Positions 5,696 through 45,567 of a stretch of DNA of 52,801 nucleotides are shown here, one piece after another (positions within the stretch are counted from its first letter, which is position 1; every line of letters begins with the position of its first letter). The notes under the pieces are model-generated. The model was not told where the DNA came from. It saw only the letters and a list, made by a program, of their open reading frames with translations, and did not search any database. The DNA comes from Actinomycetota bacterium. GTDB lineage: Bacteria; Actinomycetota; UBA4738; HRBIN12. The stretch is taken from contig DASZOO010000115.1 of NCBI GenBank assembly GCA_035550775.1, positions 1 to 52,801 of the forward strand, given 5' to 3'. Made by a program: the position numbers and the translations under genes.

Positions 5696-7044
5696 GCCGC
5701 GACCGGCTTCCCGGCCGCGACCCGGAGCAGTGCACGGATCGTCGAGGCCTCCGTCACCCGCACCGCGGCCGCGGCCGGCGACCGTCCGGGCGCATGGCGA
5801 GGCATGCGGACCGTGAGCGCACCGGGACGGGTCGCGAAGACGATCGGCGGTTCCAGCGTGAGCGCCTCGCCGTCGACCCCGACATCGACCGGACCGTCGG
5901 ACCGCACCTCGAACCGCTCCGACGTCCACTCGCGCCAGCCCTCGAATCGGTCGAGGCGACCGGCTGCCTGCAGCGAGACGAGCTTCTGCATGTCCGAGGC
6001 GCTCGAGACCGTGACGGTCGCGACGCCGAGCACGCCGTCGTCCAGGCGCTCTCGGGTCCCGCGACCCTTCGCCCGCTGCAGCTCGTACGGCCCGTTCGAG
6101 ACGAGGATCACCGCCGCGGTCGGCACCTCCTCGCCGTCGGGGCCGGTGAAGCGGAGGTCGAGCGGCCGGGCGTCGGGGCCGATCAGCTCCGGCAGCATCT
6201 CGAGCGACGTCTGCACCTTCGCGTCCCGGTACTCGGGCGACTGCACGATCCGCGCGTACAGCCCGAGCGTGGCGTTGTTCACGAAGACGCGGCCGTTCAC
6301 CTCCGCGAGGTCGATCGTGCGGTCGACGCCGTCGCTGTAGGCGTCGAGGGCACCGACGACGTCGTCGCGGTCGAGCCCGAGGTCGAGCGCGAAGTGGTTC
6401 CGCGTGCCGGCCGGGACCACGACGTGCGGGATGCCGTGCGCGCTCGCCACGGTGCCGACGAGCGCCTGGGAACCATCGCCGCCGGCCATGCCGATCACGT
6501 CGGCGCCGCGCTCCACCGCGTCCTCCGCGAGCTGCAGGAGGTCGTCACCCGGCGTGAGCACGATCGGCTCGATGCCCCGGTCCCGGCATTCGCGCTCGAG
6601 GTCGGACTTCACCGCCTTGCCGCCGCCGGACTTCGGGTTCATCAGCAGCACCGGGTGCCGTGGGCGGGGGGCGGGGGGCTCGTCGGCGAACGGGGTCGCG
6701 TCGTGCGGCTCGCGGAGCGCGAGGCCTGCTGCCCCGACCGAGACCGCCGCGACGGCCCCCACCGCCACCCACGGCCACAGGCGGGCGTCGCCCACGACGA
6801 GCACGGCGAGCACGATCGCGAGGCCGGCGAGGACCGTCGCGAGGGCGATCAGGCGCACCGAGCCCCGGTGCGACAGCGAGTACCAGGCGCCGCCGATCGC
6901 GATCGAGACGCCGACGCTCGCGATCACGATGTTCACGATGTTCGTGAGCGCGAGCGTGGCCACGACGACGACCGCGGCCACCAGGGTCACGATCGCGAGC
7001 AGCGCCGCCAGCCGTCGGATCAACGCCGGCCGATCGGTCGTCAT
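5692..7044 (-). CDS. Membrane-anchored diacylglycerol/lipid kinase (DAGK_cat, YegS/LCB5-like)
   Basis: N-terminal TM block, then VLLMNPKSGGGKA and AGGDGSQ kinase motifs. The ATG at 7044 overlaps the SulP stop (ATGA). Confidence 0.8.
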   Translation of the reverse strand: MTTDRPALIRRLAALLAIVTLVAAVVVVATLALTNIVNIVIASVGVSIAIGGAWYSLSHRGSVRLIALATVLAGLAIVLAVLVVGDARLWPWVAVGAVAAVSVGAAGLALREPHDATPFADEPPAPRPRHPVLLMNPKSGGGKAVKSDLERECRDRGIEPIVLTPGDDLLQLAEDAVERGADVIGMAGGDGSQALVGTVASAHGIPHVVVPAGTRNHFALDLGLDRDDVVGALDAYSDGVDRTIDLAEVNGRVFVNNATLGLYARIVQSPEYRDAKVQTSLEMLPELIGPDARPLDLRFTGPDGEEVPTAAVILVSNGPYELQRAKGRGTRERLDDGVLGVATVTVSSASDMQKLVSLQAAGRLDRFEGWREWTSERFEVRSDGPVDVGVDGEALTLEPPIVFATRPGALTVRMPRHAPGRSPAAAAVRVTEASTIRALLRVAAGKPVAA

Positions 7045-28135: not shown

Positions 28136-28279
28136 TCAGGCGGAGAGGCGGGCGCGGCCCTTGCGGCGTCGCGACGAGATGATCGCGCGGCCGGCTCGGG
28201 TGCGCATGCGCAGGCGGAAGCCGTGACGGCGCGCGCGTCGGCGGTTGTTCGGCTGATAGGTTCGCTTGCCCTTGGCCAT
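28136..28279 (-). CDS. rpmH: 50S ribosomal protein L34
   Basis: [34 protein letters not shown]. 47 aa. Internal ATG of the track ORF. Confidence 0.95.
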
Positions 28280-28389
28280 GCTCAGATGTGGTCCTTCGTG
28301 AGGGGATCGCGTGCGCGCCCCGTGGGAAAGGCGGGCGGATCGCCGGCCGCGACCGAGTATACGAGGCCGCATCGTCGCAGGACAAAGGC

Positions 28390-28413
28390 CTTGACACGAG
28401 AAAGAGTGTCAAG
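28390..28413. promoter_or_regulatory. Perfect inverted repeat CTTGACAC-N8-GTGTCAAG in the rpmH/dnaA divergent intergenic region
   Basis: Read directly. Each arm contains a TTGACA hexamer facing outward. Candidate operator or pair of -35 elements. Confidence 0.4.
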
Positions 28414-28524
28414 ACCCCCACGGCGACGGGTAGCCGTCGAGAACCGTGTGCTAACGTGCGGCCCGCCTTCCCCCCGGCGATCCGGGCCGTCACACGGTGC
28501 GGCGCCACGACCACCTTCCCGTTG

Positions 28525-28557
28525 TTTTCCACCCATGTGGAAAGGTGCTGTGGAATC
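28525..28557. promoter_or_regulatory. Cluster of three DnaA-box-like 9-mers just upstream of the dnaA start
   Basis: TTTTCCACC (28525-28533), TGTGGAAAG (28536-28544) and TGTGGAATC (28549-28557). The first two form TTTCCAC-N4-GTGGAAA. Confidence 0.6.
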
Positions 28558-28561
28558 CGAC

Positions 28562-29998
28562 ATGGCGGTAGCGTCCCCTGAACACGCGGCCCGGGACGCG
28601 TGGGCTCACGTGCTCGATCAGGCGCGCGAAGAACTCCCCGAGACCACCGTGGTCATGTGGTTCGCCGACGTGCGTCCGGTCGGCTTGGCCCGGAACTCGA
28701 TCTCCCTGGCGGTTCCGAGCTTGCTCGTCCGGGAACGGCTGCAGCACAATCATCTTGCACTCATCGAGCGGGCGGCCGAGGAAGCGGTCGGTCGCCCCTT
28801 GAAGGTCGAGCTCTCGGTCGACGAGGCGTTGCGGGAGCATCAACCGTCCGCTCCCGACGCGCTGCGGCGAGACATCGATCCGGGGTCCGGGGTCACGCCC
28901 GCGGGCACTCCGGCCGCAGCTCCGCATTCGGCGGCGAGCGGTCCCGCCTCGGGAGCCCCCATGTTGCCGTTCCCCAACTACACCTTCGATGCCTTCGTGC
29001 CGGGCCCGAGCAACCGGTTCGCGCACGCGGCCGCGATGGCGGTCGCCGAGGCGCCGCCCTCGACCGCGTACAACCCGTTGTTCATCTACGGCGGGGTGGG
29101 GCTCGGCAAGACCCACCTGCTGATCGCGGTCGGCCACCACATGTACCGCCTCGCACCCGCTCTGCGCGTGAAGTACGTCACCTCCGAGCAGTTCGTGACC
29201 GAGTTCATCAAGGCGGTGCGTGAACGGCAGGGCGGAGACAGCTTCCGGCAGCGGTATCGCGAGGTCGACGTGCTGCTCGTCGACGATATCCAGTTCCTCG
29301 CCAAGCGCGAGGAGACGCAGACGGAGTTCTTCCACACGTTCAACCACCTCCACGGGGCCGGCAAACAGATCGTGATCGCCTCGGATCGCCCGCCGCATGA
29401 GCTCTCCGGCCTCGAGGAACGGCTCGTGAATCGCTTCCGGTGGGGGCTCTGCGTCGACGTGCAGCCGCCCGACCTGGAAACACGGATCGCCATCCTGCAG
29501 CTGAAGGCGGAACGGGAGCGGATCACGGTGCCCCCGGAGGTCATCGAGTTCGTGGCGTCGAAGTTCGACCAGTCTGTCCGCGAGCTCGAGGGCGCGCTCG
29601 TGCGCGTGGCCGCGTGGAGCGAGCTCACCGGTCAGCCGATCGAGGTCTCGCTCGCCGAGCGCGCCCTCGAGGACCTGATCCCCCAGACCCAGAACGAGAT
29701 CCCGCCTCCGCTGATCCTCGACGAGACCGCGAAGTACTTCTCGCTGTCGTCGGCCGACCTCATGTCGAAGTCCCGGTCGCGCCCGCTGACGCAGGCCCGC
29801 CACATCGCGATGTACCTCACGCGTGAATGCACGGGGCTGTCCCTGCTGAAGATCGGCGAGATCTTCGGCGGCCGCGACCACACGACGGTGCTGCACGGCA
29901 TCCGCAAGGTCGAGGACGAGATGCGGGCTCGCGACGCGACGTTCCGCCAGGTGCAAGACCTCACACGGATCATCCGTGGGCGGGTGCGGGCCGCGTGA
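28562..29998 (+). CDS. dnaA: Chromosomal replication initiator protein DnaA
   Basis: Walker A GGVGLGKTHLL, DDIQFL, and C-terminal DNA-binding signature (ARHIAMYLTRE...DHTTVLH). ATG at M114 of the track ORF. Confidence 0.95.
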   Translation: MAVASPEHAARDAWAHVLDQAREELPETTVVMWFADVRPVGLARNSISLAVPSLLVRERLQHNHLALIERAAEEAVGRPLKVELSVDEALREHQPSAPDALRRDIDPGSGVTPAGTPAAAPHSAASGPASGAPMLPFPNYTFDAFVPGPSNRFAHAAAMAVAEAPPSTAYNPLFIYGGVGLGKTHLLIAVGHHMYRLAPALRVKYVTSEQFVTEFIKAVRERQGGDSFRQRYREVDVLLVDDIQFLAKREETQTEFFHTFNHLHGAGKQIVIASDRPPHELSGLEERLVNRFRWGLCVDVQPPDLETRIAILQLKAERERITVPPEVIEFVASKFDQSVRELEGALVRVAAWSELTGQPIEVSLAERALEDLIPQTQNEIPPPLILDETAKYFSLSSADLMSKSRSRPLTQARHIAMYLTRECTGLSLLKIGEIFGGRDHTTVLHGIRKVEDEMRARDATFRQVQDLTRIIRGRVRAA

Positions 29999-30226
29999 GG
30001 ATCGCTCGGCGGTCTCCCGCGGTGCACGATGGTGTGGACTACGTCGTGCCTTCGGTGGGAACCCGGACTTCGTTCGGGACGCCGGCAGCCGCCGGCACGT
30101 TTTCCCCACTCGTTTCCCACATGTCGGACAGCCTGATTACGCTGGGGCGACAGAGGGTCTTTCCACGTTTCCACAGCACCTACTACTGCAGTAGTCCTTC
30201 TTTCTCTCTAACAACGGAAGCAGGGG
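29999..30226. other. oriC: Candidate oriC core (dnaA-dnaN intergenic region: DnaA boxes plus a locally AT-richer stretch)
   Basis: Boxes: TGTGGACTA (30033-30041), TTTCCCACA (30113-30121), CTTTCCACG (30159-30167), GTTTCCACA (30167-30175). These are followed by cacctactactgcagtagtccttctttctctctaacaac. Confidence 0.6.
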
Positions 30227-30235
30227 GTGGACCGA

Positions 30236-31339
30236 GTGAAGTTCCGGTGTGACCGCGACGCGCTGTCTGAGGCGCTGCAGACCGTCCAGCGCGGCGTCTC
30301 CTCGAGACCCGGCATCCCTGCGCTCACGGGCGTGCTGATCGAGGCGACCGACGACGGGCGACTCACGTTCACCACGACCGACCTCGAGGTCTCGGCACGC
30401 CTGGCCACCGAAGCCCACGTCAGCGAGGCCGGCGTCGCCCTCGTGCCCGCCCGGCTGCTCGGCGACACGGTGAAGTCGCTGTCCGATGCTCCGGTCGACG
30501 TCGATGCCGATCAGTCGCAGGCTCACATCAGATGCGCGGCGTACGAGGGCACGCTGCGGCTGCTGCCCGCCGAGGACTTCCCCGGTCTCCAGGAACCGAG
30601 CGGCACGAGGATCACGGCCGAGGCGGGCGCGTTCGCCGAGGCGGTGCACCAGGTCGCACGAGGCGCGTCGCGCGACGAGGCGCGCCCCGTTCTCACCGGC
30701 GTGCTGATCGAGGTGAGCAGGGAAGGCGTCGTGATGGTCGCGACCGACTCCTACCGCCTCGCGGTGCGGGAGCTCGTTGCCTCGGCCGACGGCGAGGGCA
30801 AGGCCATCGTGCCGGAGCGTGCGCTCAGCGAGGCAGGGCGCAGCGCAGCCGCCGACGAGAAGGCCACGATCGAGGTCCTCGTCGACGAGTCGCAGGTGGC
30901 GTTCCGCATCGGCGAGCTCACGCTCACCTCGCGGTTGATCGAGGGAGAGTTCCCGAACTACCGCCAGCTCCTGCCCGACCAGCACGAGAGCCGGCTCACG
31001 ATCAGCCGCCAGCAGCTGCTCGACGCGGTCAGCCGGGTCGGGCTGATGGCGCGCGACACGACGCCGGTACGGCTGGAGTTCAACGCGCTGGGCGTCAAGC
31101 TGTCGTCGTCGAGCCCCGACCTGGGGCAGGCGATCGAGACGGTCGAAGCACGGTACGAGGGCGACGACCTCACGGTGGCGTTCAACCCCCAGTACCTCGC
31201 CGACGGTCTGCGGGCCGCCACGGGTGAGAGCGTGAGGCTCGACGTCCGCGACGGATTGAAACCCGGTGTGGTGCGGGGCGAGAACGACGAGTTCACCTAC
31301 CTCGTGATGCCCGTGCGACTCCCGGCCGCGGTCTCCTGA
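30236..31339 (+). CDS. dnaN: DNA polymerase III beta sliding clamp
   Basis: VKFRCDRDALSEAL...PALTGVLIE. GTG at 30236 (alternative GTG at 30227). Confidence 0.95.
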   Translation: MKFRCDRDALSEALQTVQRGVSSRPGIPALTGVLIEATDDGRLTFTTTDLEVSARLATEAHVSEAGVALVPARLLGDTVKSLSDAPVDVDADQSQAHIRCAAYEGTLRLLPAEDFPGLQEPSGTRITAEAGAFAEAVHQVARGASRDEARPVLTGVLIEVSREGVVMVATDSYRLAVRELVASADGEGKAIVPERALSEAGRSAAADEKATIEVLVDESQVAFRIGELTLTSRLIEGEFPNYRQLLPDQHESRLTISRQQLLDAVSRVGLMARDTTPVRLEFNALGVKLSSSSPDLGQAIETVEARYEGDDLTVAFNPQYLADGLRAATGESVRLDVRDGLKPGVVRGENDEFTYLVMPVRLPAAVS

Positions 31340-31369
31340 CCCGACGATCGCGGGCTCCCCACTCCTGCG

Positions 31370-32467
31370 ATGCGTCTCGGCTGGGTCGAGCTGCGGTCGT
31401 TCCGCAACCATCGCCATACACGCATCGACGCGATCCCCGACGGGCTCACGGTCGTCGTGGGTCCCAACGGCGAGGGCAAGACGAACCTGCTCGAGGGCAT
31501 GTACGTGCTCTACGCGCTCGGCTCGCCCAGGGTCTCGGCGAACCCGGCGCTGGTGCAGGAGGGTCAGGAAGCGGCCTACGCTCGGGGGGAGTTCGAGTCC
31601 ACGGGCGGGAAGGTGCTGGTCGAGGTCGAGATCCCCGCGAAAGGGGCGAGCCGCGTGAAGGTGAACCGCTCGCCGATCCGGCGCAAGCGTGACCTGCGCC
31701 GGCAGGTGCGCGCGGTGTTGTTCGGTCCGTTCGACCTGCCGGTCGTGATCGGCGATCCGTCCAAACGCCGGACCTTCCTGGACGAGGCCGTGACGGCGTT
31801 GTGGCCGCTGAAGGAAGCGCTGATGTCCGCCTACGATCGAGCGCTGCGCCAGCGGAACCGGCTGCTGAAGGAATGGGACCGTCCAGGCCCGCCCACGGGC
31901 ATCGAGGCCTGGGACGAGGAGCTCATCGAAGCGGGCGCTGCGGTGGTGCGGGCACGCCATGACGCCGTCGAACGGCTCGCGCCGCACGCGGCCCGGGAGT
32001 TCGCCGGCCTCGCGGACTACGAGCTGCTCGTCCGATATCGGCCCAACGTCTGGGATGCTGACGACCTCGAGGGAGCGTTCGCCGCTCGGCTGGCCGAACG
32101 TCGTGCGGACGAGCTGGCGCGCCGGAGCTCGCTCGTCGGGCCGCACCGCGACGATCTCACGTTGGACGTGCGAGACCTCGGAGCTCGCTCCGCCGGGTCG
32201 CATGGGGAGACGTGGGCCACGGCGCTCTGCCTGCGTACCGGTCTCGCCTCGGCTGTGGCCGACGAGCTCGGTGAGCCGCCGGTCCTGCTCGTCGACGACC
32301 CGTTCAGCGCGCTCGACCCGGCCCGTCGCGATCGGTTCCTAGGGCGGCTCGCGGAGCGGGAAGGCCAGGTGATCGTCACGGTGGCCGACGAGGCAGACGT
32401 GCCGACGCATCCCGCGGCCGTCTGGGACGTGCGGGCAGGCGCCGTCGTCCCTCGGAGCGCGGCGTGA
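31370..32467 (+). CDS. recF: DNA replication and repair protein RecF
   Basis: Walker A GPNGEGKTNLLE; signature SHGETWATALCL; LLVDDPFSALD. Confidence 0.95.
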   Translation: MRLGWVELRSFRNHRHTRIDAIPDGLTVVVGPNGEGKTNLLEGMYVLYALGSPRVSANPALVQEGQEAAYARGEFESTGGKVLVEVEIPAKGASRVKVNRSPIRRKRDLRRQVRAVLFGPFDLPVVIGDPSKRRTFLDEAVTALWPLKEALMSAYDRALRQRNRLLKEWDRPGPPTGIEAWDEELIEAGAAVVRARHDAVERLAPHAAREFAGLADYELLVRYRPNVWDADDLEGAFAARLAERRADELARRSSLVGPHRDDLTLDVRDLGARSAGSHGETWATALCLRTGLASAVADELGEPPVLLVDDPFSALDPARRDRFLGRLAEREGQVIVTVADEADVPTHPAAVWDVRAGAVVPRSAA

Positions 32468-32486
32468 CCAGGTCGGCCGTGGGGGC

Positions 32487-32834
32487 GTGGTGATGCCCGA
32501 CGCGAAGGGTTTCCAGGGGCGCCGCCGGCCTCGGTCCGACGATGCGGTCGCGCTGGGCACGATCGTCGAGGGGTTGCTGCGTGAGGAGGTGTTCAGCAGG
32601 GGGATGCCGATCGCGACGCTCGCCTCGCGGTGGCCCGAGATCGTCGGACAGCGCTTGGCCGCCGAGACCGCACCGGTGTCCCTGGACGAGGGCGTCCTGA
32701 CCGTGGAGGTGTCCACCGGCGCGTGGGGTGCGCAGGCCCGGTTCCTGCACGAGGAGATCCGCAGGAAGGCCGACGAGTCGCTGGGGGGCGAGCAGGTCCG
32801 CCGGGTCCGGTTCACCGTGAGAAATCCCAGGTAG
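32487..32834 (+). CDS. DUF721 protein (DciA-like, Rv0004 position)
   Basis: Small basic protein between recF and gyrB. WPEIVGQRLAAETAPVSLDEGVLTVEV is typical of DUF721. Confidence 0.8.
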   Translation: MVMPDAKGFQGRRRPRSDDAVALGTIVEGLLREEVFSRGMPIATLASRWPEIVGQRLAAETAPVSLDEGVLTVEVSTGAWGAQARFLHEEIRRKADESLGGEQVRRVRFTVRNPR

Positions 32835-34937
<2,103 letters not shown>

Positions 34938-34962
34938 TGATCTCGCAAGGAGCTGACACCCC

Positions 34963-37409
<2,447 letters not shown>

Positions 37410-37410
<1 letters not shown>

Positions 37411-39476: not shown

Positions 39477-39551
39477 GGGCCTGTAGCTCAGCCCGGTTAG
39501 AGCGCTTCCCTGATAAGGAAGAGGTCGATGGTTCAAGTCCATCCAGGCCCA
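39477..39551 (+). tRNA. ileT: tRNA-Ile (anticodon GAT), no encoded CCA
   Basis: Cloverleaf folded by hand: acceptor GGGCCTG/CAGGCCC, D arm GCTC..GAGC, anticodon stem CTTCC/GGAAG with loop CTGATAA, T arm GATGG-TTCAAGT-CCATC, discriminator A. Confidence 0.95.
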
Positions 39552-39572
39552 CTCCCGGAAGGAGGGCTTCCC

Positions 39573-42112: not shown

Positions 42113-42673
42113 ATGAAGAAGCGAGTCGTCCAAGCGGGGGAGTTCGAGGTCGTCGACGCCGACGGCCGCGTGCGTGTGCGCATCGGGCTGTCCAACGACG
42201 AAGATCCCTTCCTCTCGCTGCTCGCCCCCGATGGCCAGGTCCGCATGCGATTCGGCCTGTCGGGCGACGGGGCCGCAGGGCTTGCCGTCGGCGACGCCAA
42301 CGGCAAGGTGCGTGCCACGGTGGGACTGTCCAGCGACGGCAGCGCGAGCCTTGCGTTCGGCGACAAGAACGGGCGGATCCGCGCGAAGTTCGGCCTGGCC
42401 CCCGAGGCGTCCCCGACGATGGGCATGCACGTGAGTGACGACGAGCTGTCGCAGGTCTACTCGCTCGCCGAACAGGGTTCACCGACATTGGGTCTCTACG
42501 ATCACGCGGGCAAGGTCCGGGTTCGGCTCGGCCTCGCGGCCGAAGGCTCCCCGGTGCTCCGCCTGCTCGACCGCGACGGGGAGCTCCGAGCGATCGTGGG
42601 GCTCGCGGATGACGGCTCGCCGTTCGTCCGATTCCTCGACGAGGCCAAGCAACCGACCTGGACCATGCGATGA
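42113..42673 (+). CDS. Leaderless, Cys-free protein made of about 7.5 tandem 23-aa repeats
   Basis: Repeat pattern x-L-x-L-x-D-x-x-G-x-x-R-x-x-x-G-L-x-x-D-G-S-P, e.g. VLRLLDRDGELRAIVGLADDGSP. ATGA overlap with the next gene. Confidence 0.7.
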   Translation: MKKRVVQAGEFEVVDADGRVRVRIGLSNDEDPFLSLLAPDGQVRMRFGLSGDGAAGLAVGDANGKVRATVGLSSDGSASLAFGDKNGRIRAKFGLAPEASPTMGMHVSDDELSQVYSLAEQGSPTLGLYDHAGKVRVRLGLAAEGSPVLRLLDRDGELRAIVGLADDGSPFVRFLDEAKQPTWTMR

Positions 42674-43179
42674 CCGGGTGGTGGGCCCTGGCCTTCGTCG
42701 TGCTCTGGCTGCTCGTGGTCGTGCTCTGCATCGTCGTGATCGCGCTCGCCCGGCAGGTGGGCACCCTGCATCTGCGTCTCGGCCCCCGCGGCGCGCTCGA
42801 GATCGACGACGAGGGCCCGGCGATCGGCGAACCGCTGCCGACCGTCACCGCGGCCACGCCCGGCGGACATCCGATCACGATCGGGGGAGCGGGCCGGCCG
42901 CGCCTGGTGCTGTTCGCCTCGGAGACCTGTGCGATCTGCCGCGAGGTGTCCCCCGGCATCCCCGCAGCGGCGGCCGCCGGCCGGCTCGACCCGATCGTGG
43001 TGCACGACTCGGCGGCCGAGCGCCGGCTCGACGTGCCGGGTACGCCGTTCGTGGTCGTGTTGGACGAGCACGGTATCGTGCGCGCCAAAGGCACCGTGAA
43101 CAACCTGGAACAGGTCGAGGGATTGGTGGACACCGCGAACCGCCGGATCACGGAGGAACATCGACAGTGGGCAAGCTGA
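42670..43179 (+). CDS. Membrane-anchored thioredoxin-fold protein, MauD-like (TlpA/ResA superfamily)
   Basis: N-terminal TM segment WWALAFVVLWLLVVVLCIVVIAL; FASETCAICREV CxxC motif; GTPFVVVLDEHG. Confidence 0.75.
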   Translation: MTGWWALAFVVLWLLVVVLCIVVIALARQVGTLHLRLGPRGALEIDDEGPAIGEPLPTVTAATPGGHPITIGGAGRPRLVLFASETCAICREVSPGIPAAAAAGRLDPIVVHDSAAERRLDVPGTPFVVVLDEHGIVRAKGTVNNLEQVEGLVDTANRRITEEHRQWAS

Positions 43180-43703
43180 CCCCGATCGAGCGAGCGGAAC
43201 GCTCTCTCGCCTCTCGCACCAGTCGCCGGAGCTTCCTGGGGCGGGTCGGCAAGGGCGTCGTCGCGCTCGCAGGCGGAGGACTCGTCGCCACCGCGATCGC
43301 TCCCGACCGCGCGCAGGCGTATCACATCTGCGGCCACACGTATACGACCGGCTCATGCCCGCATCCTTACTCCCCGTTGTCTCGGACCGATCGCTACGGC
43401 TATCCGATGCACCCTCAGTACGGGCACCCCGTCGACGACGCGGGGAAGAAGTACGTGGATCCCAAGTCTCAGAAGCGGCGGAAGACCTGTGAGCAGATGG
43501 TGCCCGGGGAGTATCCGTTCACGGGGAGACCGCGTTACGGCGGTGGATGGACCCGCTGCTGCTACGGAAGGCTGCGGCACATCCAGGATTGCTGCTCCAC
43601 CTCCGACATCCGTATCAACGGGGACTACGCCGTTCGTGGCTACTGTCCGCGCGGGCTCAAGGTGTTCTGCATCACCTACCGGGAGCTCAACCGGCGGTGC
43701 TGA
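43167..43703 (+). CDS. Tat-leader, 10-Cys small protein resembling the methylamine dehydrogenase light chain (MauA-like)
   Basis: GTG preceded by GGAGG 10 nt upstream. Leader ASRTSRRSFLGRVGKGVVALAGG...APDRAQA. Mature part has GGGWTRCCY, IQDCC and GYCPRG motifs. Confidence 0.7.
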   Translation: MGKLTPIERAERSLASRTSRRSFLGRVGKGVVALAGGGLVATAIAPDRAQAYHICGHTYTTGSCPHPYSPLSRTDRYGYPMHPQYGHPVDDAGKKYVDPKSQKRRKTCEQMVPGEYPFTGRPRYGGGWTRCCYGRLRHIQDCCSTSDIRINGDYAVRGYCPRGLKVFCITYRELNRRC

Positions 43704-43781
43704 CCGACGCGCTGGGCGGCGACGCGGTCGCGGGAGCGCTGGTGCTGGCCCTCGTGGCCGCGTCGGCCGTCGCGGGGTGGT

Positions 43782-43807
43782 CAGCCCTCTACGGGCCCTG
43801 AGGGCTG
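43782..43807 (+). promoter_or_regulatory. Hairpin CAGCCCTC-N10-GAGGGCTG whose 3' arm contains the Shine-Dalgarno sequence of the next gene
   Basis: Read directly. GAGGG (43800-43804) lies 6 nt before the ATG at 43811. Confidence 0.4.
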
Positions 43808-43810
43808 TCG

Positions 43811-44935
43811 ATGGTGGAGACCATCACTCCCGTCGTGTACGGGGGCCGAGCCCGATGGACCGCGGCGTTCGCGCTGCACGTCGCCGGCGCCACAGCGAGC
43901 GCTGCCATGTTCGGGTTGATCCTGGGCGGCGTCGGGTCGTTGCTCGGCGCTCCGTGGGGGCGCGCGGGAGCGATCGCCCTCGCCGCCGCCGCGGCGGTCT
44001 ATGCCCTCGGGGAGCTCCCCCGGATCACGGCCACGGTCCCGCAACTCCGTCGCCAGGTGCCCGACTGGTGGCGGGAGTTCTTCTCGTGGCCGGTCGCCGC
44101 TACGCTCTACGGCGCCGGGCTCGGCATCGGCTTCTTCACCTATCTCTCGCACGGAACGCTGGTCGTCGTGGCGCTCGCTGCGCTCGCGTCGGGAGACCCT
44201 CTCGTCGGCGCGATCGTCGTCGCGCCCTTCGGGCTGGCTCGAGGGCTCTCGGCCGCTCGGGCCTCCGGGGTTCGAACGCAGGAGGCATCACAGCGGTTGG
44301 TCGATCACCTCGCAGAGACGCCGGAGCGAGGCCGGTCGATCGCCAACGGCTCGGCGCTGGTCGTGGTGGGCGGCCTCTCGCTCGTGACGGCGGCCGGAGC
44401 GGCGGATGGTTGGGGCGCGTTCGCGACGGCAGCGCTCGCGCTGGCGTTCGCCTGGGCGGCCGCGTCGAAGGTGGCTGACGTGCGTGGATGGCGCCGCACC
44501 CTCGCCGCGCACGGGCTGCCCCGAGGCGTCGGGGCGGCGGCCGTGTTCGGCGTGCCCACCGCCGAGGCGTTGGTGCCGGTGCTCGCGGTGTCGGGGTGGC
44601 CTCGAGCGGCCGCGATCTGGGCGCTCGTGCTCCTGCTCGTCTTCACGGTCGAGGCCCTGCGGGCCTGGCGACGGTTCGGACCCCACGTGCCGTGCGGCTG
44701 CTTCGGCGGCCGCGAGGCCGTCTCGCCGGCGGCCCTGCTGCTCCGCAACGCCGCGCTCGCCGGCCTCGCCGCCACCGTAGCCCTGCGGCCGGCACCCCCG
44801 CCGGCGTTCTCCTGGCCCGGGTGGCCCGCCCCGGGGGAGGTCTTGCCGATGGTGTTGGCGATCGTGGGAGTGGGCGTGGCAGGCTTCACCGCGTGGACGG
44901 CGACGAAGTGGCTCGGCGGCGGGGCGCGCCCGTGA
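43811..44935 (+). CDS. Polytopic membrane protein: N-terminal Cys-free multi-TM domain fused to a MauE/DoxX-like C-terminal half
   Basis: C-terminal half has FGVPTAEALVPVL... and VPCGCFGG. The N-terminal half has QLRRQVPDWW and GAGLGIGFFTY motifs. Confidence 0.65.
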   Translation: MVETITPVVYGGRARWTAAFALHVAGATASAAMFGLILGGVGSLLGAPWGRAGAIALAAAAAVYALGELPRITATVPQLRRQVPDWWREFFSWPVAATLYGAGLGIGFFTYLSHGTLVVVALAALASGDPLVGAIVVAPFGLARGLSAARASGVRTQEASQRLVDHLAETPERGRSIANGSALVVVGGLSLVTAAGAADGWGAFATAALALAFAWAAASKVADVRGWRRTLAAHGLPRGVGAAAVFGVPTAEALVPVLAVSGWPRAAAIWALVLLLVFTVEALRAWRRFGPHVPCGCFGGREAVSPAALLLRNAALAGLAATVALRPAPPPAFSWPGWPAPGEVLPMVLAIVGVGVAGFTAWTATKWLGGGARP

Positions 44936-45567
44936 TGATGCCGTGGATCCGACGCGCCGTATGGGCGATGCGGCCCGTGACACCCTTCCTCGCTGCCGGG
45001 CTGGCCGTCCTCGTGGCCCTGGTCGCGATCGCGTCGCCGAGGTTCCATACGGACATGAACGATCCCGACGATGCGAAGGGTCCCCTCGACGTCCGCCGGA
45101 TCCGCCTCGACCACGAGGGCCGCACCGAGATCACCGCGATCACCTTCTCGGACTGGACGGCGAAGTCGATGTGGGACCGTGGGAACGCCTACGTGCTGCT
45201 CGACACCGTCGGGCGCGAGCCCGCCGACTATTTCATCGTCGTGCGCAGCACGGGCACGACGTTGCAGGCTTCCTTGTGGCGAGATCGGCGGGCGAAGCGT
45301 GACGCGTTCCTGCGAAACGTCAAGGTGCGCCGGAAGACGTTGAACAGCCTGACCGTCAGGGTGCCGGTGAAGTCACTGGAGTTCGGGCGCCAGCGAGACG
45401 TCTACTACTGGTGGGTGGTGACCAGCTTCACGGGCAGCATCTGCCGGCGAACGTGCCTCGACCGGGCCCCCAACAGCGGGACGGTCGAACAGTGGCGGCC
45501 GGGCCACTCGCCGACGCCGACCACGACCACGTCGACGTCCACCGGCACGAGGACCGCCGGCCCGTAG
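44935..45567 (+). CDS. Hypothetical exported or anchored protein with Thr-rich C-terminal tail
   Basis: GTGATGATG start region overlaps the upstream TGA. Hydrophobic N-terminus FLAAGLAVLVALVAIA; DDAKGPLDVRRIRL; tail PTPTTTTSTSTGT. Confidence 0.6.
   Translation: MMPWIRRAVWAMRPVTPFLAAGLAVLVALVAIASPRFHTDMNDPDDAKGPLDVRRIRLDHEGRTEITAITFSDWTAKSMWDRGNAYVLLDTVGREPADYFIVVRSTGTTLQASLWRDRRAKRDAFLRNVKVRRKTLNSLTVRVPVKSLEFGRQRDVYYWWVVTSFTGSICRRTCLDRAPNSGTVEQWRPGHSPTPTTTTSTSTGTRTAGP

Follow-up and report, generated by a model that had tools for sequence, protein, structure and literature searches.

Introduction

The MauD/MauE/MauF module has been studied mainly as a helper of methylamine dehydrogenase (MADH), whose light chain MauA belongs, together with AauA, to the tryptophan tryptophylquinone (TTQ) light-chain family. 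To our knowledge, no chemistry has been assigned to MauF. Experiments have shown that MauE acts as a DsbB-like oxidase and that its active site is CXC-F-G (bioRxiv 10.64898/2026.03.05.709764). Mau-type enzymes have also been described elsewhere: decRiPPter listed candidate Streptomyces clusters for peptides that are made by the ribosome and modified after translation (RiPPs), in which mauE or mauD stands beside precursors with at least 8 Cys (PMC7794033). The cysteine tryptophylquinone (CTQ) systems need QhpD/E/G or the LodB/GoxB flavoproteins and involve thioether bonds or large proteins (PMC7876137). Here, we describe a locus in a 52,801-nucleotide (nt) stretch of DNA from an Actinomycetota bacterium (contig DASZOO010000115.1 of assembly GCA_035550775.1, analyzed at full length and called the window below), in which a gene for a Cys-rich precursor, gene X, lies in one operon with homologues of mauD, mauE, and mauF. 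A first-pass annotation had taken its product for a MauA-like protein that kept only one Trp.

Our best reading is that X represents an unnamed, widespread family of clients of the MauD/MauE/MauF module, and that the module itself includes a probable selenoprotein.

Results

X belongs to a large and strongly constrained family

The coordinates of gene X and its neighbors are given in Table 1. Behind a twin-arginine translocation (Tat) leader, the mature part of X has 127 residues starting at Tyr52, with a single Trp (W128, in GGGWTRCCY) and ten Cys (55, 64, 108, 131, 132, 142, 143, 160, 168, and 178), and is strongly basic, as its 15 Arg and 6 Lys stand against 7 Asp and 3 Glu. This anatomy is as the first-pass annotation had described it and is conserved across the family, and the strings quoted there (DCC, GYCP, KVFCIT, and PHPYSPLSRTDRYGYPMHPQYGHP) are all present in X.

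Relatives were gathered from a collection of 5.8 billion proteins and fall into two subfamilies, subfamily 1 with 631 clusters at 90% identity and the more distant subfamily 2 with 1237 clusters, with about 43% identity between them. Scanning one genome for each species turned up relatives in 400 species genomes. Among the best 80 species matches, 78 were labelled as uncultured Actinomycetota/Actinomycetes or unclassified metagenome-assembled genomes, and one subfamily-2 member carries the name Solirubrobacteraceae.

An alignment of 52 sequences from both subfamilies has 37 invariant columns, including the ten Cys, W128, D141, Y159, and an R-x-N-G-D motif. Among 233 full-length members, W-x-R-C-C is found in every sequence (233/233) and ten Cys in 230; Tyr159 is present in 231/231 members, while position 167 holds Phe (229 members) or Tyr (2 members). 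Exactly one Trp occurs in 193 of the 233, and the other 40 carry an additional Trp at nonconserved sites (positions 59 or 79). Such a pattern is far beyond chance; the family is real and strongly constrained. Our literature search found no report of it.

An AlphaFold2 model built from the two-subfamily alignment has a predicted local distance difference test score (pLDDT) of 86 to 97 over mature X and contains a helix (107 to 115), a β-hairpin (123 to 132 and 135 to 144), and a long C-terminal strand (165 to 177); a first model from a shallow alignment was unusable (pLDDT 53). Between the CP motif and the Trp lies an insert of about 55 residues, helix included. The Tyr/Pro/His-rich insert pointed out in the first-pass annotation is indeed present in X, but its His-rich character is not kept in subfamily 2, and a His-rich metal site was dropped as a candidate since His53, His66, His82, and His138 vary there. 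Sub-threshold matches to ZnF_RZ (PF20173) appeared in 22 of the 52 members, in the regions corresponding to X residues 55 to 67 or 128 to 150; because they fall in different regions of different proteins, we judged them to be noise from Cys/His composition.

X is encoded together with MauD, MauE, and MauF

Gene X lies directly downstream of mauD and shares its operon with mauE and mauF. The order mauD-X-mauF::mauE places X in the slot of mauA, as canonical clusters also have mauD directly 5' of mauA. Successive genes of the operon overlap by 4, 13, 7, and 1 nt, the 13-nt overlap being that of the mauD homologue with X.

The only NCBIfam match of the MauD-like protein was TIGR02661 (E 2.3e-24; its 85.9 bits fall short of 188.6, the equivalog cut-off), and tblastn aligned it with Paracoccus denitrificans MauD at 33% identity (E 2e-17). 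In the fusion protein, the MauE domain (residues 242 to 363, with a P-C-G-C-F-G active-site motif) matches Pfam PF07291 (E 5e-21 and 1.4e-20 in separate scans). The MauF-like domain covers about residues 1 to 225; P. denitrificans MauF 78 to 268 matches residues 34 to 225 of the fusion with 31% identity over 196 residues (E 9e-13), and the motifs W-S-P-C-G and P-Q-x-R-x-Q-V-P are common to both. There is no Pfam or NCBIfam model for MauF, and MauF domains therefore escape annotation in public genomes. A mauD homologue was present in 81/81 loci and a mauE homologue in 75/81. The MauD/MauE folding machinery had already been mentioned in the first-pass annotation; mauF goes beyond what was claimed there.

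The subfamily-2 clusters, read at loci L095 (8121 to 11081) and L096 (8121 to 11084), have another arrangement: a MauE::MauD fusion of 296 residues, then X2, then a MauF-like protein of about 500 residues, whose N terminus has Cys rather than selenocysteine and which carries an extra C-terminal domain of about 270 residues without family assignment. The MauD, MauE, and MauF domains are common to both subfamilies and the other neighbors are not, which makes these three the universal partners of X.

The mauF::mauE gene probably encodes a selenoprotein

The 108 nt behind X, nominally "intergenic," share the frame of mauF::mauE and encode a membrane helix homologous to the first helix of MauF. Codon 35, which falls on the conserved Cys of the W-S-P-C-G motif, is TGA in 78/78 loci and never TAA or TAG, while TGC, encoding Cys, stands here in the genes of the subfamily-2 MauF-like proteins and of P. 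denitrificans MauF. GTG serves as the start codon in some loci and ATG in others, with in-frame conservation of the upstream helix. Four-fold degenerate sites 5' of the TGA show 1.2 to 1.9 bits of entropy, and this free third-position variation shows that the frame is translated. Because of the in-frame TGA, gene callers begin mauF::mauE at ATG 43811, a truncation present in every genome with gene calls that we saw.

Two conserved RNA hairpins just 3' of the TGA form a candidate bacterial selenocysteine insertion sequence (SECIS). RNAalifold retained both hairpins over 63 distinct sequences, and four-fold degenerate sites in their stems show 0.0 to 0.11 bits, compared with 0.5 to 1.9 bits for those in loops and flanks. 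The Cys-encoding homologues lack hairpin 1 despite a near-identical peptide, and hairpin 2 agrees with the bacterial SECIS model of PMC13188914 in loop, stem, and spacing. The folding-energy z-score of the candidate is only -1.16, in a GC-rich context, and it has no Rfam match. No tRNA-Sec was found in the window or the related loci, and a scan of ten window proteins revealed no sel gene. X itself ends at an ordinary UGA stop 96 nt upstream, which indicates that the genome uses the standard code. From these sequence features, the TGA is probably decoded as selenocysteine. We found no literature report of a MauE or MauF selenoprotein.

Several long database entries present X as part of a "fusion"; most of these are frameshifted metagenome calls. 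P0139, P0129, P0170, and similar entries are chimeras running from X into mauF::mauE. P0139 reads Trp at the position of the TGA (GPWGLSM), which suggests translation with a code that has UGA as a sense codon.

X lies outside the TTQ light-chain family

By the TTQ light-chain family's own criteria, X falls outside it. PF02975 gave no match to the window protein or to any of 52 relatives, even at E<=1. Pfam and NCBIfam scans of X and these relatives returned, besides the sub-threshold PF20173 matches, only leader or Tat matches. The TIGR02659 score of the window protein was 16 bits (cut-off 197) and was confined to leader residues 7 to 35. A phmmer search and two profile searches of PDB sequences with X returned nothing at E<=10. 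Foldseek of the confident model against 350,542 PDB chains had a best E of 0.55 with TM <0.2 and no light chain of MADH or aromatic amine dehydrogenase (AADH) in the top 50, although small disulfide-rich folds such as X are hard to detect this way.

The 52-sequence alignment and the 233 members contain no trace of a second conserved Trp, and a canonical TTQ is therefore impossible, which bears out the first-pass annotation on this point. Queries with P. denitrificans MauB, MauG, and MauJ (tblastn) returned nothing at E<=1e-5 in 80 related loci, searched to about 6 kb on either side of gene X, and nothing in the window at E<=10.

Comparison of the leader and the mature domain with MauA

The long Tat leader of X is of the MauA type. 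We compared X with a MauA profile made of 7 proteobacterial MauA/AauA proteins and 2 Thermomicrobium MauA-like proteins from annotated plasmids. In hhalign, X residues 6 to 33 aligned with MauA residues 10 to 37 at 94.7% and 93.8% probability (E 6e-8 and 1.7e-7); the 27 aligned columns take in the stretch before the twin arginines. The leader likeness noted in the first-pass annotation is thus borne out. When whole proteins were compared, the leader alone was aligned. TIGR02659 was the sole specific NCBIfam match of the X family among 18,950 models, found in 17/52 members; the matched stretch was displayed for the window protein only, where it is the leader.

With the leaders removed, the best local alignment to canonical MauA was GWTRCCYG..LRHIQDCC versus SWVASCYNPTDGQSYLIAYRDCC (P 0.018, hhalign probability 2.5%). 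The best profile alignment was obtained with short PF02975 proteins of the Thermomicrobia type (Thermomicrobium roseum WP_143714793 and an unannotated paralogue; P0390-P0402), over 42 columns (P 0.0015, hhalign probability 17%), and 2/200 column-shuffled templates reached its score. Its register matches W128, C131-C132, and D141-C142-C143, and further Y159-C160 with N-W-C, C168 with V-V-C, and the terminal Cys with the terminal Cys. The W-x3-C...DCC block proposed in the first-pass annotation is thus the best local alignment to MauA, at a marginal level. The likeness of X to PF02975 is limited to the C-terminal 55 residues and is suggestive, not proven; that the mature domain is demonstrably a MauA domain is not supported.

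The two alignments differ in the residue that takes the place of the partner Trp. The lower-scoring alignment to canonical MauA gives Phe167, as the first-pass annotation had read from KVFCIT, whereas the Thermomicrobia-type alignment places Tyr159-Cys160, not Phe167-Cys168, at MauA Trp108-Cys109. The first-pass annotation would have counted a conserved aromatic at the partner position against its reading, and in the better alignment the invariant Tyr159 is arguably such a residue. As for the disulfides of the MADH light chain, we take them to be 23-88, 29-61, 36-121, 38-86, 46-77, and 78-109 (UniProt P22619), the residue numbers having been checked against the sequence. On this connectivity, and under either alignment, the ten Cys of X can be mapped to four MADH-like pairs plus one extra pair.

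Other operon genes and the chromosomal context

The operon begins with a gene for a 186-residue protein and ends with one for a 210-residue protein (Table 1). The 186-residue protein is translationally coupled to mauD, its stop overlapping the mauD start (ATGA). It is found in 78/81 loci with 74 to 94% identity, more conserved than MauD, and is absent from the subfamily-2 clusters. Its repeat unit reads x-L-x-L-x-D-x-x-G-K-x-R-x-x-x-G-L-x-x-D-G-x-P. It has no Pfam or NCBIfam match, and its weak PDB matches are solely engineered OspA hairpin-repeat proteins (E 0.02). This protein might be a cytoplasmic chaperone for the long leader of X. The gene of the 210-residue protein, which overlaps the mauF::mauE stop, is found in 65/81 loci with 38 to 68% identity, and its product has no Pfam or PDB relative. 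We considered the two neighbors as analogues of a large subunit and rejected the idea, as they are unlike the C-terminal domain of the subfamily-2 MauF-like protein and have no real PDB relatives.

In all loci, the operon sits close to the replication origin (oriC), near gyrA, in the region that runs from dnaA through dnaN, recF, and gyrB to gyrA and onwards; these assignments rest on the size and order of the open reading frames (ORFs) and on synteny in related genomes. Such a conserved location suggests that the operon serves a core function of the envelope and is not an accessory trait. In the window, this region (28223 to 37410 and 39477 to 39552) comprises the origin-region ORFs and, after them, an M23 peptidase, DUF3566, and tRNA-Ile. 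In related genomes, a DUF3352 gene stands between an MR_MLE gene and the operon, and it is missing from the window.

Table 1. Coordinates of gene X, its operon, and the elements discussed in the text
Feature	Position	Strand	Description
186-residue protein	42113-42673	+	First operon gene; about eight 23-residue β-hairpin repeats, no signal peptide
MauD-like protein	42670-43179	+	169 residues; thioredoxin fold, N-terminal membrane helix, C-A-I-C active-site motif
Gene X	43167-43703	+	178-residue precursor; GTG start behind GGAGGA ribosome-binding site, TGA stop at 43701-43703
X Tat leader	43167-43319	+	Residues 1-51; TSRRSFLG twin-arginine motif, APDRAQA, A-Q-A cleavage site
X Trp128	43548-43550	+	
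X Tyr159	43641-43643	+	
X Phe167	43665-43667	+	
mauF::mauE fusion	43697-44935	+	412 codons; GTG start, 7-nt overlap with the X stop (GTGCTGA)
In-frame TGA	43799-43801	+	Codon 35 of mauF::mauE, at the conserved Cys of MauF W-S-P-C-G
Candidate bacterial SECIS	43810-43843	+	Two conserved RNA hairpins just 3' of the TGA
Hairpin 1	43810-43825	+	GAUGGU-GGAG-ACCAUC; loop GGAG at 14 nt
Hairpin 2	43829-43843	+	CCCGU-loop-ACGGG; loop N-G-U-N-N at 32 nt
210-residue protein	44935-45567	+	Last operon gene; N-terminal membrane anchor or signal, extracytoplasmic domain

Discussion

On balance, we hold it somewhat probable that X is a Tat-exported disulfide knot of MauA stock, a client of the MauD/MauE/MauF module that lives without TTQ. 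According to this explanation, X would be exported through Tat as a 127-residue extracytoplasmic protein and would fold into a knot, probably held by five disulfides, as the dedicated client of a Mau-type oxidative-folding module encoded in the same translationally coupled operon. MauD would act in the module as a DsbA-like protein of thioredoxin fold, MauE as a DsbB-like, quinone-linked disulfide generator with a CXC site, and MauF as a membrane protein whose conserved Cys is here replaced by a probable selenocysteine. X most likely comes from the same stock as the MauA precursors, having kept the leader, the position behind mauD, and possibly the C-terminal Trp-hairpin/DCC core, and the second Trp, the MauB partner, and MauG would have been lost or would never have been present. 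As X lacks the partner Trp, MauG, and MauB, it should form no TTQ and have no amine dehydrogenase activity. The pairing of its Cys and the common descent of its mature domain with MauA are what we infer from these comparisons.

Several observations weigh against this explanation. The mature domain has no Pfam, PDB-sequence, or Foldseek match, which leaves its homology to MauA unproven; the "MauA-like" label of the first-pass annotation holds for the leader, the mauA slot, and a weak C-terminal alignment, and finds nothing in PF02975, PDB, or Foldseek. The N-terminal segment of X, ICGHTYTTGSCPHP, scored no better than shuffles against PF02975 profiles in hhalign, so that a tentative match of this segment to ICDCSGGSLTNCPPG is unsupported. 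MauE is a generalist disulfide oxidase, and MauA occurs in only about 10% of the species that bear MauE (bioRxiv 10.64898/2026.03.05.709764); the adjacency of X and MauE could therefore reflect a housekeeping locus. Indeed, it is from gene adjacency that we infer an action of MauD, MauE, and MauF on X, and the absence of MauB and MauG applies to about 6 kb on either side of the gene.

The lack of database matches is also what would be expected if X were unrelated to MauA, a Cys-rich exported protein that has recruited the Mau-type disulfide module. The hhalign probability for mature X is just 2.5 to 17%, its N-terminal half looks like noise, and Streptomyces clusters do pair mauE or mauD with unrelated Cys-rich precursors (PMC7794033). 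We nevertheless regard this origin as rather unlikely, and equally so its corollary that the W...CC...DCC likeness arose by chance and the leader likeness from generic Tat features or convergent recognition, as four independent coincidences would be required. The leader match reaches before the twin arginines, and of all NCBIfam models it singles out the one for the MADH small subunit; X stands directly after mauD; mauF is present, a gene otherwise known solely from mau clusters; and the best local alignment falls exactly on the TTQ-Trp hairpin and stays in register to the C-terminal Cys of the Thermomicrobia-type proteins. The generalist nature of MauE and the conserved oriC-proximal region could also be taken to mean that X is a working component of a general MauE/MauD disulfide system in a housekeeping operon, a redox relay or an isomerase partner, and X has two vicinal Cys pairs and appears in gene calls fused to MauD or MauE-MauD (P0130, P0134). 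We consider such a role very improbable: X lacks a thioredoxin-like fold and a CXXC motif, its ten invariant Cys are what structural disulfides would show, the MauA-type leader and the mauA slot indicate a client, and many of the "fusions" are the frameshifted calls mentioned above.

Another question is whether W128 carries a protein-derived cofactor other than TTQ, made without MauG, so that X would be a small redox enzyme or electron carrier; 7-hydroxy-Trp, a CTQ-like Cys131-Trp crosslink, and a Tyr159-Trp crosslink are the candidates. W128, D141 (the equivalent of MADH β-Asp76 in DCC), the additional Cys131, and Tyr159 are all invariant, with Tyr159 at the partner-Trp position in the best profile alignment; the first hydroxylation of the Trp in TTQ and CTQ is regarded as autocatalytic (PMC7876137), and the probable selenoprotein of the maturation module hints at redox chemistry of a demanding kind. 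However, neither subfamily's cluster conserves MauG, a LodB/GoxB/QhpG-type flavoprotein, or a radical-SAM enzyme, and genes for a partner large subunit or an electron acceptor are missing; the alignment behind the residue equivalences is marginal, and the ten Cys, an even number, are fully explained by five disulfides. A different Trp-derived cofactor in X, which the first-pass annotation had named as one possible outcome, finds no support here, and we think it quite unlikely. Slightly less likely still is the more specific proposal that X descends from MauA and modifies Trp128 without MauG, by hydroxylation and/or a crosslink to Tyr159 or Cys131, served by a selenocysteine MauF::MauE oxidoreductase, as the first of a new cofactor class. 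If this proposal were true, many uncultured soil Actinomycetota would have the resulting small redox protein outside their cytoplasm.

Returning to X as a client of the module, a very large unnamed family with the same three helpers and no dehydrogenase nearby suggests that the module serves a wider class of clients. X would then be a simpler client than MauA for dissecting the role of each helper. For work on cofactors, it would be a natural experiment on how much of the TTQ scaffold is retained, and on the part played by the conserved Trp, when the partner Trp and MauG are missing. The probable change from Cys to selenocysteine in MauF would mark this residue as redox active, a first functional clue for MauF, and MauF::MauE would add a membrane protein of the disulfide pathway to the bacterial selenoproteome.

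Comparison with known systems

Of the systems with a single Trp crosslinked to Cys, a chemistry that the first-pass annotation had put forward as one possibility, namely QhpC (the CTQ γ subunit of quinohemoprotein amine dehydrogenase) and the CTQ oxidases LodA and GoxA, none shares its maturation genes with the X clusters, and no sequence similarity to X was found. The decRiPPter clusters resemble the X operon in that Mau-type disulfide enzymes are reused outside methylamine metabolism for a Cys-rich product. However, their products, which we compared with X by description only, are short putative peptide precursors in accessory clusters, whereas X, encoded in a core syntenic locus, is a folded domain of 127 residues behind a Tat leader.

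The operon as a whole also resembles the mau clusters, as MauD (CXXC), MauE (CXC-F-G), and MauF (W-S-P-C-G and P-Q-x-R-x-Q-V-P) are all found around X. Unlike in mau clusters, MauF is fused to MauE in subfamily 1 and MauE to MauD in subfamily 2, the subfamily-1 MauF Cys is encoded by TGA, and the client is not MauA. X itself shares with MauA and AauA the long Tat leader, similar before the twin arginines, the place directly 3' of mauD in an operon that includes mauE and mauF, and a small, Cys-rich mature domain that keeps, in order, the W-x3-C...D-C-C hairpin motif, an aromatic-Cys, and a late Cys. It differs from them in its numbers of conserved Trp (one, not two) and of Cys (ten, not twelve), in the roughly 55-residue insert that separates the CP motif from the Trp, in the absence of the N-terminal C-x-Y-W-R-H-C segment, and in having no MauB, MauG, MauJ, or amicyanin gene nearby.

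The T. roseum plasmid NC_011961.1 (locus L002, about 5850 to 6297 and 699 to 1151) carries two divergent MauA-like genes, one of which is missing from the PLSDB gene table. Both proteins have W-x-x-C-C, a C-terminal Cys, and a mature part with 15 Cys, an odd number, and their genes adjoin one for a 596-residue MauE fusion with a large N-terminal domain as well as several similar hypothetical proteins of 400 to 450 residues. Like X, the Thermomicrobia-type genes thus adjoin a fused MauE protein, and X and these proteins have in common two features that canonical MauA lacks, W-x-x-C-C and a Cys as the last residue. Unlike X, the Thermomicrobia-type proteins are recognized by PF02975 and have the N-terminal C-x-x-W-x-x-C, the CLCSC/CPxG block, and a second Trp (N-W-C), at the place of which X has Tyr.

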